Of a stretch of DNA of 64,000 nucleotides, positions 17,381 to 25,338 are shown piece by piece. How positions within the stretch are numbered: position 1 is the stretch's first letter; the number at the start of each line of letters is the position of its first letter. The DNA is taken from NCBI RefSeq assembly GCF_058153355.1, contig NZ_CM177019.1. The stretch is one strand, 5' to 3'. Under the pieces are notes generated by a model that ran no database searches, was not told the DNA's origin, and saw only the letters and a program-made list of their open reading frames with translations. Position numbers and translations under genes: made by a program.

Positions 17381-17445
17381 GCCTGATGCGCGACGCTTAT
17401 CAGGCCTACGAGTTCAGTGCAAGGCGTTCACGCCGCATCCGGCAT
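17381..17445. repeat. REP pair (BIME) between cynR and codA
   Basis: gcctgatgcgcgacgcttatcaggcctac and gcaaggcgttcacgccgcatccggcat; preceded by palindrome gccgctgacacaggtcagcggc (17352-17373). Confidence 0.7.
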
Positions 17446-17472
17446 AAACTACGCTCGCTGCAACCCAGCCGA

Positions 17473-18756
17473 TTACCGTTTGTAATCGATGGCTTCCGGC
17501 TGCTCCAGATACACGGTGGTTTGTGCCGGTTGCGTGGTGGCAATCACCTTACCACCACGTACCGAATAGCGTACCGGAACCTGACGGCGCAGCGCATCAA
17601 ACCCATTTTCAGCCGGCAGGATAATCAGGTTAGCGCTGTTTCCGGCGACTATGCCGTAATCCTGCAAATTCAACGTCCTGGCGCTATGGTGGGTGATTAA
17701 ATTTAGGCCGTCGTTAATCTGCCCGTAGCCCATCAACTGACAAACATGCAGCCCCATATGCAGCACTTGCAGCATATTCGCCGTTCCCAGTGGATACCAC
17801 GGATCGAAGACATCATCGTGACCAAAGCAGACGTTAATGCCGGACTCCAGCATCTCTTTAACGCGCGTAATACCGCGACGTTTTGGATACGTATCGAAAC
17901 GCCCTTGTAGATGAATATTGACCAGCGGGTTGGCGACAAAGTTAATACCGGACATTTTCAGCAAACGGAACAGGCGCGAGGTATACGCCCCGTTATAGGA
18001 GTGCATTGCCGTGGTGTGGCTGGCGGTGACTCGCGCGCCCATGCCTTCACGGTAAGCCAGGGCGGCAACGGTTTCGACAAAGCGCGACTGTTCGTCATCG
18101 ATCTCATCACAGTGAACATCGATGAGACGGTCGTATTTTTGCGCCAAGGCGAAGGTTTTATGCAGCGACTCCACGCCATATTCACGGGTAAATTCAAAAT
18201 GCGGAATCGCCCCCACTACGTCAGCCCCTAAGCGTAACGCCTCTTCCAGTAACGCTTCACCGTTGGGATACGACAAAATCCCTTCCTGCGGGAAGGCGAC
18301 GATTTGCAGATCAATCCACGGCGCGACTTCCTGCTTCACTTCCAGCATCGCTTTTAGCGCAGTCAGGGTTGCATCCGAAACATCGACATGGGTACGCACA
18401 TGCTGAATACCGTTGGCAATCTGCCATTTCAGCGTTTGCCAGGCGCGTTGTTTCACATCGCCATGGGTTAATAATGCTTTGCGCTCGGCCCAGCGTTCAA
18501 TGCCTTCAAACAGCGTGCCGGACTGATTCCAGTTCGGTTGCCCGGCGGTTTGCGTGGTATCCAGGTGAATATGCGGCTCCACAAACGGCGGTAAAACTAA
18601 ACCTTGCTCGGCATCCAGGCTGTTTTCTGTTACGGGCATCACGCCGGATTGCGCATCAATGGCGCTGATTTTTCCGTCCTGCAGATGAATCTGCCATAGC
18701 CCCTCTTTGCCGGGTAACCGGGCGTTAATAATTGTCTGTAAAGCGTTATTCGACAC
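17473..18756 (-). CDS. codA: cytosine deaminase
   Basis: GTG start ([16 protein letters not shown]...) overlapping the codB stop (revcomp ...AGTGTCGAATAA); 427 aa; amidohydrolase HxH motif. Confidence 0.9.
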
Positions 18757-20005
18757 TGTTAGCCTCCACATGCGTCATTGCAGCTGTCGTTTTGCGATTC
18801 AAAATCGGGTTAAGGATCAGATAGCTCAGCGCACCACCTAATACCGCGTTGACCGGTACAATGCCCGGTAACCAGTGGCCTGCGGCAATCCCCAGCGCGA
18901 CCGCCAGAATCGCCACCCAATTGACACTCATCATACGCGTGGTCGCAAAGTGCTCATAGCGGCGACGGTTCATCAAATAGTCGGCGATGATCACGCCCCC
19001 CACCGGAGGAATAGCAGCCGAAAGGAAGGTTAGCCAGCCGACAAAATTGTTATACAGCCATAGTGCGCAGACCGTGCCGATAATACCGTTGATTACTGAA
19101 AGAGTTTTGCTCGACATACCGGTAATATTGGCGAAACCTAAACCCGACGCATAGAGCGCGTTATCGTTGGTGGTCCAGATATTCAACCCCAGCACCACAA
19201 TCGCGGGCAGCAGCAAGCCCTGAGCAATCATCACATCAGAGATATCCGCCATCCCCAGTGCCGCAGCGCCTGCCGCACCGAAAATAAACATCAACGAGTT
19301 GCCGAGGAAAAAGGCCACCATCGCCACCAGCACCGCCAGTTTGGCATTGCGACCAAAGCGGACAAAGTCAGCGGTGAGCGTACCCGCACTGATAAATGAC
19401 CCCACAACCAGCGCCAGCGCGACATTGAAATCTAGCGGTTGTGCGGGAACGACCGCTTTTAATGCCTCCAGGCCGCCCATGCCGTTAACGGCCAGCCATA
19501 CGGAATAACCGCCAAGGCAGGCAATCGCCGGAACCGCAATCACCGAAAGTACCGTCAGCGCCGAAATGCCAAAGAAGACGGTGACGGTCATCAGTAAACC
19601 GGAAACGGCAATCAGCAAATTAATATCCAGCCCGGTTGCCTTGCCCACCGGAATAGCAAACATCGCCACGCCAACACCAAACCAGCCGACCTGAGTGCCG
19701 CCCAGCAGCAGTGAAGGCAGCCATGAGCCTTTAACACCAAACGAGAAGCGAGCAAGAAGATGGGTGGTCAGGCCGGTTTTTGCGCCAATGTAACCAAGAA
19801 ATGAAGTGTAAATACCGAGGAGAAGATTACCGATGAGGACTGCGAGGAAGAAATCATGATAGCTAAGACCGGTTCCGAGAGTGCCGCCGGTCCACATACT
19901 GGCGGAAAAGAAGGTTAATCCCAGCATGACGAACGTCAATGCCAATACCCCTTTCCGCGCCGACTGCGGGACAGGCCCCTGGCTAAAGTTGTTATCTTGC
20001 GACAC
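18746..20005 (-). CDS. codB: cytosine permease
   Basis: 419-aa polytopic membrane ORF directly upstream of codA. Confidence 0.9.
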
Positions 20006-20159
20006 GAAATTCCCCCTTTTTGCTGTTTGAAACCCAAAAAATCCGCCGCATTCTATTCATCTGAAGATAAAAAGCAATCGTTTTCGTGGAGGGGATATAT
20101 TTTTTATATGGATGAATGCGGAAAAGTGGATAAAAACTTATTTGAGAAAAAATGGGTAC

Positions 20160-22447: not shown

Positions 22448-23899
22448 TTAAATGACGTACAGGTCGAGATACTCATTGACCGGCATCTGTTCCAGGCGAG
22501 TTCTGTCGAGAGAAACCTCCAGAATGCGCTGCTGTTGGCGAGTCGGGAACTGGCGCGCGAGATTGATTTTGAATTTATCCACCAGCTTCGGAATGCCATC
22601 CTGACGGCGGCGAGCATGACCAATGGGGTACTCCACCACCACTTCTTCAAATCGCGTACCGTCGGTAAACTCAAGGGTTATGGCATTAGCGATGGCGCGT
22701 TTTTCCGGGTCGTGGTAGTCAGCGGTAAACGCCGGATCTTCAAAGCAATTGATCTTCTCGCGCAGGGCGTCGATGCGTTTATCTTGCGCGACGTTATCTT
22801 CGTAATCTGCTGCCGTTAAGCGCCCGAACAGCAGTGGGATCGCCACCATATACTGAATGCAGTGGTCGCGGTCAGCCGGGTTATTGAGCGGCCCTTTTTT
22901 GTCGATGATGCGAATACAGGCTTCGTGGGTGCGAATGGTCACTTTTTCGATATCTGCCGCCGTTTTGCCTGCTGCCTGCATCTGTTCATAGAGCGTCATC
23001 GCCGCTTCAACTGCCGTCTGGGAGTGGAACTCCGCCGGGAAGGAGATTTTGAACAGCACATTTTCCATGACGTAGGAACCGTACGGACGCTGGAAGCGGA
23101 ATGACTCACCTTTAAAGGAGACGTCGTAGAAACCCCACACCGGCGCGGTCAGGGCTGACGGGTAACCCATTTCGCCCGTTTTCGCCATCAGCGCCAGACG
23201 TACCGCGCGGGAAGTGGCATCGCCCGCCGCCCAGGATTTACGCGTGCCGGTGTTCGGCGCATGGCGATAGGTGCGCAGCGACTGACCGTCCACCCACGCC
23301 AGCGAAACGGCGTTGAGAATTTCCTCGCGGGTCAGGCCGAGCATTTCGGCGACCACGGCGGTGGAAGCCACTTTCACTAACAGAACGTGGTCGAGGCCAA
23401 CGCGGTTAAAGGAGTTTTCCAGCGCGATGCAGCCCTGAATTTCATGGGCTTTGATCATTCCGGTCAGCACCTGTTTCATGGTCAACGGCGCTTTGCCGCT
23501 GGCGACCGCGTTGCGTGAAAGCCAGTCTGCCGTTGCCAGAATGCCGCCGAGGTTGTCGGAAGGATGGCCCCACTCCGCCGCCAGCCAGGTATCGTTGAAA
23601 TCGAGCCAGCGGATCATCGCGCCAATGTTAAATGCCGCCTGGACGGGGTCGAGCTGGAACTGAGTTCCGGGAACGCGCACGCCGTTAGGTACGACGGTGC
23701 CAGGAACAATTGGCCCCAGCAGTTTTTTACAGGCCGGGTATTCGAGAGCTTCCAGACCGCAGCCGAGGGTGTCGAGCAGGCAGTAATGGGCGGTGTCGTA
23801 GGCCACTCTGGAGCTGATTTCGTAGTTCATGACGTAATCGACGATATCAACGATTTCACGATCAAATTCCGGACGGATGTTGTTAATTTGAGCTGACAT
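22448..23899 (-). CDS. prpD: 2-methylcitrate dehydratase
   Basis: 483-aa MmgE/PrpD-family ORF. Confidence 0.9.
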
Positions 23900-23932
23900 T
23901 GGGTACGTTTCCTTCTTGTTATTCGTAGAGGT

Positions 23933-25102
23933 TTACTGGCGCTTATCCAGCGCGACAAACGGTCGCTCTTCCGGTCCAACGTAATTGGCGGAAGGACGGA
24001 TAATTTTGTTGTCCTGACGTTGTTCGATAATGTGCGCCGCCCAGCCGGTGACGCGGGCGATAACAAACAGTGGCGTGAACATCTCGGTGGGAACGCCCAT
24101 CATGTTGTAGGAAACAGCGGAGAACCAGTCGAGATTGGGGAACATCTTTTTGCTCTCCCACATCACCGCTTCCAGACGATCGGCGATGTTGTACATCTTC
24201 AGCGAGCCGCCTTCCTGCGAGAGCTGCTTCGCCACACGTTTGATCACCTGATGACGCGGGTCGGCGATGGTATAAACCGGATGCCCAAAACCAATGACCA
24301 CTTCTTTGTTTTCAACCCGCTTGCGGATATCAGCTTCGGCTTCGTCCGGCGTTTCATAGCGTTGCTGGATCTCCAGCGACACTTCATTCGCCCCGCCGTG
24401 TTTCGGCCCGCGCAGTGCGCCAATCGCGCCGATAATGGCTGAATACATGTCAGAGCCGGTGCCCGCAATCACCCGGCTGGTAAAGGTGGAGGCGTTAAAC
24501 TCGTGTTCGGCGTACAGCACCAGCGAAATATGCATCGCCTTTTCCCAGCTTTGCGACGGCTTTTCGCCGTGCAGCAAATGCAGGAAGTGACCGCCGATGG
24601 AATCGTCATCGGTTTCCGGCTGGATGCGTTCGCCGTTGTGGCTGTAGTGATACCAGTAGAGAAGAATCGAGCTCAGCGACGCTAATAATTTGTCGGCAAT
24701 ATCCCGCGCGCCAGAGACGGTATGCCCCTCTTTTTCTGGCAGCGTGCAGCCGAGCGCGGAAACGCCGGTGCGCATAACATCCATCGGGTGTGACGCCGCC
24801 GGTAAGGCTTCCAGCACGGTACGCACGTTAGCCGGTAAACCGCGCAGGGCTTTCAGTTTTGTTTTGTAGGCGGCGAGTTCGTCACGGGTCGGCAGTTTGC
24901 CGTGGATCAGCAGATGCGCCACTTCTTCAAATTCGCAATGTTCCGCCAGGTCAAGAATATCGTAGCCGCGGTAATGCAGGTCATTGCCACTTTTACCCAC
25001 GGTGCAGAGCGCCGTATTGCCCGCCGGAACGCCAGAAAGTGCCACAGATTTTTTCGGTTTAATGACATGGGTACTGTTTTGCAGGATCGTTGTGTCGCTC
25101 AT
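23933..25102 (-). CDS. prpC: 2-methylcitrate synthase
   Basis: 389-aa citrate-synthase-family ORF. Confidence 0.9.
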
Positions 25103-25144
25103 GTTGTCCTCGTCATTGTTATCATTTGTAGGGTCGAGATTGTT

Positions 25145-25338
25145 GTCGGATGCGACGCTATGCGTCTTATCCGACCTACAGTTCAGTTCATCCCGTAGGC
25201 CTGATAAGCCGCGTCAGCGACGCATCAGGCATCGGTTGTCGGATGCGACGTCATGCGTTTTATCCGACCTACAGTTCAGTGCACCCCGTAGGCCTGATAA
25301 GTCGCGTCAGCGGCGCATCAGGCATCGGTTGTCGAATA
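25145..25338. repeat. BIME (two ~94-bp REP units) between prpC and prpB
   Basis: gtcggatgcgacgc...cttatccgacctacagttcag...cccgtaggcctgataag units at ~25145 and ~25239. Confidence 0.75.

Follow-up and report, generated by a model that had tools for sequence, protein, structure and literature searches.

The question raised by the 64,000 nt stretch of DNA studied here (NCBI RefSeq assembly GCF_058153355.1, contig NZ_CM177019.1; the whole stretch is called the window below) is whether the empty copies of an 11 nt sequence, identical to the site in which its resident IS621 is inserted, are places where this insertion sequence (IS) could land as well. The window covers an Escherichia coli-type lac-cyn-cod-prp-yah region, of which positions 16000-26000 are ~98% identical to the best-matching complete genomes, and the resident IS621 is located between yahI and yahG. 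The analysis makes it very probable that the 11-mers flagged in the window represent the conserved 3' arm and tail of Z-type repetitive extragenic palindromic (REP) elements, that these form the integration target of IS621 and that the empty ones are secondary sites that can be filled. The 11-mer sites exist in REP hairpins, the guides of the resident element are wild type and its recombinase gene is intact, and homologous sites are filled with base-exact junctions.

According to Choi, Ohta & Ohtsubo (2003, J Bacteriol 185:4891), as cited by Durrant et al. and by Tobes & Pareja, IS621 inserts at a specific site in REPs. When insertion of a donor plasmid by the wild-type IS621 system was followed genome-wide in BL21(DE3), 173 sites were found, 144 of them in REPs and 129 with exactly the sequence ATCAGGCCTAC (Durrant et al. 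2024, Nature 630:984, PMC11208160). The principle and the exact 11-mer motif are already known, and the published wild-type sites share with those of the window the 11-mer, the CT core, the Z-type REP tail, the guides, the donor ends and the wobble at position 4. The published picture is also one of many perfect sites per genome and few filled ones, and in this respect the sites of the window are not different in kind.

Target sequences in the window

An exact search for the 11 nt target ATCAGGCCTAC (or ATCGGGCCTAC), whose CT core occupies positions 8-9, gave five matches in the window, starting at 17399, 25195, 25288, 43743 and 43836, while 100 shuffled sequences gave an expectation of 0.01 and none of them (0/100) reached five matches. 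The first site (17399-17409, plus strand, 3' flank GAG) belongs to the Z-type REP between cynR and codA, and the next two are situated in the bacterial interspersed mosaic element (BIME) between prpB and prpC, in its unit 2 (25195-25205, minus strand, 3' flank GGG) and its unit 1 (25288-25298, minus strand, 3' flank GGG). These three uninterrupted copies had been listed in the initial annotation, from which the first two were recovered at the same positions; the third, placed there at about 25286-25296, is a real and perfect match whose position was 2 bases off. Another two perfect copies, at 43743-43753 (unit 2) and 43836-43846 (unit 3), both on the plus strand and both with the 3' flank AGA, lie outside the span of that annotation and were not listed in it; they share a BIME with the resident IS621, the former 84 bp downstream of it.

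DNA folds place all five perfect sites in the 3' arm and tail of a Z-type REP hairpin, with folding energies of -8.3 to -10.4 kcal/mol. The stem consists of target positions 1-7 (ATCAGGC) paired with a GCCTGAT located upstream of them, and CT-AC follows just 3' of it; for the cynR-codA REP the hairpin extends over 17381-17405 (-8.4 kcal/mol, z -3.5) and the CT core is found at 17406-17407. The elements around the sites are extragenic imperfect palindromes of ~35 nt that occur in clusters and alternate in orientation, and the REP seeds GCCTGATGCG, GCCGGATGCG and GTCGGATGCG were counted 9, 8 and 7 times in the window, respectively. Matches to the Rfam family naRNA4 (RF02564), which represents BIMEs, were obtained at 25198-25269, 20253-20424 and 43681-43843, above the gathering threshold on five BIME units. 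The excess of the 11-mer over chance is thus explained by the sites being members of a repeat family. Compared with the REPs and BIMEs described in E. coli (Y, Z1 and Z2 units), those of the window are alike in being extragenic imperfect palindromes with Y- and Z-type units in alternating orientation and a tandem period of ~93 bp; they differ in that the cynR-codA unit has a truncated Y partner (17410-17446) and in that the codB-prpE units carry a G-to-T change.

A search allowing one mismatch bore out the variants that had been proposed for the lacA-cynX and codB-prpE REPs. The lacA-cynX REP holds ATCAGGCCTAT (C11 to T; 13924-13934, plus strand) and the codB-prpE BIME holds three copies of ATCATGCCTAC (G5 to T; 20250-20260, 20344-20354 and 20439-20449, minus strand), a change which disrupts the REP stem and the guide match alike. 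The tail of the codB-proximal REP, ATCATGCGTAC (20156-20166, minus strand), has two mismatches and has lost the C of the core, by which the CT core is destroyed. The same search detected the Y-type REP tails ATCCGGCCTAC at 43771-43781 and 43864-43874 (minus strand, opposite orientation), in which position 4 is C, and a match outside any REP at 58414-58424. The latter is what could be brought forward for the view that the 11-mer matches are coincidental and unrelated to IS621, but the number of exact matches compared with the shuffles, the location of all five in REP hairpins and the filling of their homologues in nature have already refuted this view, and we regard it as next to impossible.

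The resident IS621 and its bridge RNA

The resident IS621 is 1280 bp long (42379-43658, plus strand), with the ends TGTAT... and ...ACAGTATCT. It is preceded by ATCAGGC and the core CT, which make up the left half of the filled target (42370-42378, plus strand), and followed by the right half, AC (43659-43660), so that ...CTTATCAGGCCT is joined to TGTATTATCC... at the left junction and ...ACAGTATCT to ACAGATTC at the right junction. From these halves the empty site is reconstructed as ATCAGGCCTAC, in agreement with the initial annotation, which had taken the occupied site to be the same 11-mer. On circularisation the ends of the element form the published wild-type donor ACAGTAT-CT-TGTAT.

The bridge RNA gene is located in the left end (42393-42570, plus strand), as identified by alignment to the wild type in Supplementary Table 2 of Durrant et al. 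Its left target guide AUCGGGCCU, its right guide GUAG (with UGC before it) and the entire donor-binding loop are the same as in the published wild type, and the target is complementary to both guides, with position 4 pairing as rG:dT in the way described in PMC11208160. The only differences are two substitutions and a 1-nt insertion, all within a small hairpin of the target-binding loop (window positions 42452-42474). As the guides and the donor-binding loop are unchanged, the resident element encodes the published specificity. No bridge-RNA family of Rfam reached the gathering threshold in the window, where the only matches were those to naRNA4 (BIME).

The recombinase open reading frame (42571-43551, plus strand) encodes 326 amino acids with the two domains typical of the IS110 type, a DEDD RuvC-like domain (Pfam PF01548, 1.8e-24) and a Transposase_20 domain (PF02371, 3.9e-26), and 322 of the 326 residues (98.8%) are identical to those of the IS621 transposase in PDB entry 8WT6. 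The element is 1280 bp instead of the usual 1279 and is only ~97.6% identical to the common E. coli IS621. Its closest match is one of the copies in strain 2017-02-2CC (99.6%), and the 1280-bp length together with the variant hairpin recurs in the copy that this strain carries between cynR and codA. That the resident copy is currently active is inferred, as are the relative efficiencies of the individual target sites.

The explanation that we prefer is that IS621 has evolved to use exactly the 3' arm and tail of Z-type REPs as its integration site, with strand exchange at the CT core of the target. The orientation of the inserted element is fixed by the strand of the target, as the latter is not symmetric.

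Occupancy of the sites in complete genomes

Occupancy was studied in 5,426 complete E. coli genomes. For each locus the query was a 600-bp chimera, in which 300 bp of unique flank from upstream of the site, with ...ATCAGGCCT at the end, were joined to the first 300 bp of IS621, and a genome was counted if one place covered at least 80% of the chimera, a copy of IS621 alone covering 51-60%. Exact insertion sites were established for 18 fetched loci in which the junctions were read. IS621 itself was present at a coverage of at least 80% in 1,635 of the genomes, with 13,149 matching places and a median of 5 per genome among the genomes with any.

All five loci were occupied by IS621 in some of the genomes, each time in the orientation that the strand of the 11-mer predicts, and this supports the proposal of the initial annotation that the empty copies are candidate secondary landing sites. 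The numbers of occupied genomes were 29 for yahI-yahG (window site 42370, filled here), 33 for cynR-codA (17399), 8 for prpB-prpC (25288 and 25195), 44 for lacA-cynX (13924) and 297 for prpE-codB (20156-20449). At lacA-cynX the right junction, consisting of the IS621 end and the cynX flank, was found in 38 genomes. The flanks of the genomes occupied at cynR-codA are between 94.1% and 99.3% identical to the window, which suggests several genetic backgrounds.

At yahI-yahG, 25 of the 29 genomes match contiguously at the site that is filled in the window itself. The match spans 784 bp in the other 4, and where these were read (EC9 and ECN24) IS621 is situated two units downstream, in unit 3; in EC9 units 1 and 2 are empty. 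At prpB-prpC unit 1 is used in five genomes and unit 2 in three. The homologue of 25288 (unit 1) is filled in SCZE5, ECJXMCRH7, MMC-J-0091, ECN24 and M23314, and the homologue of 25195 (unit 2) in D7, PM7 and HN257 and by a second copy in SCZE5, where two IS621 copies 93 bp apart fill both units at once. MMC-J-0091 (unit 1) and PM7 (unit 2) represent simple insertions with prpCDE intact. Homologues of 17399, 25195, 25288 and 43836 have thereby all been seen filled in natural genomes. That the sites of the window are empty is attributed to numbers, the usable sites (>100 per genome) being far more numerous than the IS621 copies, and nothing in the occupancy data suggests that the empty sites are refractory.

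Junctions, orientation and flanking bases

Junctions were read for 23 copies of IS621 from other genomes. In 22 of them the element is preceded by ATCAGGCCT, and all 21 with a readable right end continue with AC. The sole exception at the left junction, ATCTGGCCT followed by IS621 and AC, departs from the 11-mer at position 4 only, which is the position reported to tolerate a mismatch as an rG:dT pair (PMC11208160). Natural integration in the form ATCAGGCCT, left end, right end, AC, with the orientation given by the strand of the target, was observed at cynR-codA, prpB-prpC and yahI-yahG. The cynR-codA junctions of the fetched loci L001 and L007 read ...CTTATCAGGCCT, IS621, ACGAGTTCAGTGC, which is exactly the site at 17399 in the window, and the same was read in L008.

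As a control for orientation, the cynR flank was joined to IS621 entering by its right end, and this reversed arrangement, for which no genome had been expected, was detected in 3 genomes only. They were considered as cases of insertion in the wrong orientation at the Z-type site of cynR-codA, and this was rejected, for in all 3 the Z-type site is empty and IS621 is located in a Y-type REP, ATCTGGCCTAC (L020, NZ_CP040269.1, and two further genomes). The copy of strain 1500 is found in the opposite-strand Y-type REP of the cynR-codA BIME, 19 bp from the still-empty Z-type site, and this Y-REP variant constitutes natural use of a target with a mismatch at position 4. The homologous Y-REP is the one truncated in the window. 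The orientation of IS621 follows the strand of its target.

Beside the cynR-codA site, a segment of ~200 bp comprising the 3' end of cynR and its REP is duplicated in tandem in L007 (NZ_CM132959.1) and in 5 further genomes (H95-H100); of the two REPs in L007, the first is unoccupied and IS621 fills the second. Short pseudogene fragments were noted in L014, L016 and L020 as well.

A 3' flank of GCA is known to extend the pairing with the right guide, and such sites are preferred (PMC11208160). The initial annotation had named a dependence on positions outside the 11-mer as something that would speak against its proposal; such a dependence is present only weakly, GCA being favoured and not required. 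The 3' flanks read at naturally filled sites were GAG, GGG, AAG, CCA, AGG, AGA, AAA and GTA, none of them GCA, and from this variety no requirement beyond the 11-mer is evident.

With these data another explanation can be weighed, in which the empty perfect sites are refractory through their local context (flanking bases, REP-binding proteins, transcription or target immunity near a resident copy), so that the 11-mer over-predicts. None of the five window sites, with the flanks GAG, GGG, GGG, AGA and AGA, carries the favoured GCA extension, and for a related IS110-family element a hairpin in the target has been found to modulate the efficiency (bioRxiv 10.64898/2026.03.19.712850), both of which fit this explanation. 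It is, however, largely refuted by the occupancy, as homologous sites with identical flanks are filled in nature. Moreover the AGA flank of the filled window site is shared by both of the empty ones beside it, and the copies only 93 bp apart in adjacent units of SCZE5 argue against short-range immunity. We consider a refractory state of the sites highly improbable.

Some of the results weigh against the reading preferred here, that the empty 11-mers are fillable secondary targets, and favour the refractory explanation or leave the counts less telling than they look. Unit 2 of the yahI BIME, the equivalent of 43743, was not seen filled by IS621 in any of the occupied genomes of the 5,426-genome screen, in which the spans at this locus were 599 or 784 bp only. 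In the screen nearby pieces of an alignment were joined, and the counts therefore mean that IS621 lies within ~800 bp of the flank in the given orientation. The number of genomes is not the number of independent insertions, as an insertion may have been inherited in common by many of the occupied genomes, and the 297 genomes at prpE-codB could go back to a few old events. The resident variant, finally, is presumed to be active, with 4 amino-acid changes and an altered hairpin in its target-binding loop.

Differences between lineages

The loci that are one mismatch away from the target in the window are perfect in those other genomes that were checked. The lacA-cynX site of TW10828 reads ...CT, IS621, AC and thus has no mismatch. 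At prpE-codB the junctions that were read place IS621 in the codB-proximal unit, which is perfect in those genomes, with ATCAGGCCT before the element and ACCCAC after it in S56 and others. In the window all Z-type codB-prpE units carry the G5-to-T change and the codB-proximal unit lacks the C of the core as well, and the locus most often filled among those tested is therefore one that is mutated in the window genome, core included.

The closest relative, strain 2017-02-2CC (L019, NZ_AP027764.1), is the reverse of the window, as its cynR-codA site is filled and the spacer between its yahI and yahG, 95 bp in length, contains no REP or BIME. In the window the corresponding region (42302-43920) holds a BIME of three units together with IS621. 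Judging from these two sequences, the target array at yahI-yahG is polymorphic for presence and absence.

Another explanation, compatible with the preferred one, is that the empty sites have been used before and are targets restored by precise excision of earlier IS621 copies. Excision in the IS110 family has been described as scarless, with regeneration of the target (PMC11208160), and occupancy is polymorphic among relatives, cynR-codA being filled in 2017-02-2CC and empty in the window. Scarless excision leaves no signature, though, and nothing in the sequence supports restored targets; REPs with this tail far outnumber the IS621 copies and are also present in genomes lacking IS621. For another IS110 element a copy-out mechanism that preserves the donor copy has been argued (bioRxiv 10.1101/2025.10.25.684509). 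Restoration is held to be very unlikely as the origin of the empty sites.

Rearrangements bounded by IS621

Once two sites are filled, pairs of sites in the same orientation become endpoints of deletions (the cyn operon; prpCDE) and pairs in opposite orientation endpoints of inversions (prpB to yahI). This second layer of events is attributed to the 1.28-kb IS copies and possibly to the recombinase itself. Rare deletions and inversions between insertion sites were reported from the assay of Durrant et al. (PMC11208160).

For the cyn operon both states were found. In TW10828 an intact cyn operon is bracketed by two IS621 copies of identical sequence and direct orientation, one at lacA-cynX and the other at cynR-codA, and in 2014C-3097 lacA is followed by IS621 and codA without any cyn genes, the flanks being identical to those of TW10828 at 999/1000 and 520/520 positions (L003, NZ_CP027449.1, and L008, NZ_CP127262.1). 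This IS621-linked loss of cyn is common to at least four genomes with flanks 99.9-100% identical to TW10828. An adjacency of lacA and codA was considered as general proof of a deletion mediated by IS621 and was rejected, since the cyn operon is missing in 1,019 of the 5,426 genomes, with a BIME at the junction, and, apart from four, the cyn-less matches listed show either no IS at this place or IS1397 (strain 536); the claim is limited to those at least four genomes. E2348/69 and APEC O1, which are cyn-less with no IS at the junction, belong to phylogroup B2. The lacA-codA junction of E2348/69 is a hybrid BIME with its crossover in a Y unit and not in the IS621 core, and its flanks are ~98% identical to those of 2014C-3097. 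Set apart by the position of the crossover and by the greater divergence of the flanks, the common cyn-less state is a separate event. Identical accessions of the flanking proteins were discarded as evidence of shared lineage, as E2348/69 has the same LacY and CodA proteins, and DNA identity was used instead.

In E. coli 536, and likewise in many more of the cyn-less genomes, IS1397 is inserted in the Y unit of the lacA-codA BIME and adjoins an empty ATCAGGCCTAC. This IS3-family element targets REPs like IS621 and uses the same BIMEs, but it belongs to another family with another mechanism and inserts in the loop of Y units, and none is present in the window.

Loss of prpC, prpD and prpE, with prpB followed by IS621 and codB, was found in D7 (L004), ECJXMCRH7 (L010) and HN257 (L016), representing three distinct combinations of junctions. 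A search for prpB beside codB in the 5,426 genomes revealed no adjacency free of an IS; the number of genomes it returned (2) is a lower bound, as HN257 has the same architecture and was missed. In ECN24 (L013/L014) prpB is joined through IS621 to yahG, and yahI through IS621 to codB, which corresponds to a loss of prpCDE plus an inversion from prpB to yahI, with IS621 at both ends and the two sites oppositely oriented. M23314 (L015) contains three IS621 copies, at mhpT-codB, codA-yahI and prpB-yahG, and lacks lac and cyn. All breakpoints of these rearrangements are located exactly at the CT core.

The outcomes are those known from recombination between IS copies and from the engineered excision and inversion by bridge recombinases (Durrant 2024, Fig. 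5, Supplementary Note 1), in that pairs in the same orientation give deletions (cyn; prpCDE) and opposite pairs give an inversion (prpB-yahI). Unlike the engineered reactions, those described here took place in natural isolates and are known from sequence, in which RecA-dependent and recombinase-catalysed exchange look alike. Recombination between 1.28-kb IS621 copies explains all rearrangements seen; for the cyn deletion a two-copy intermediate exists in TW10828, and the inversion in ECN24, each end of which carries IS621, is in keeping with recombination between a pair of copies in inverted orientation. A further idea, which we put forward tentatively and hold to be rather unlikely, is that the REP targets of lac-cyn-cod-prp-yah, spread over 30 kb, act as a natural recombination grid in which the bridge recombinase, independently of RecA, deletes cyn and prpCDE and inverts prpB-yahI. 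The exchange may then join the end of an integrated IS either to an empty target far away or to the end of another copy. The breakpoints at the CT core, the three different prpCDE junctions and the failure to find an IS-free prpCDE deletion in the search described above fit such a grid, but recombination between copies explains everything equally well.

Conclusions

The core finding, that empty 11-mers in Z-type REPs are targets of IS621, restates published biology of the element and matters little alone. What is added is evidence, locus by locus, that in 5,426 natural genomes the 11-mer predicts the position and the orientation of IS621 as well as the tandem double occupancy of adjacent units. 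It is also added that the usability of a site is lineage-specific, the most commonly filled locus, prpE-codB, being mutated in the window genome, and that pairs of sites mark the endpoints of natural gene losses, affecting cyanate and propionate catabolism, and of an inversion. These natural rearrangements are the most interesting by-product of the study, and IS621 together with its REP targets constitutes a concrete and testable source of structural variation around the lac region.

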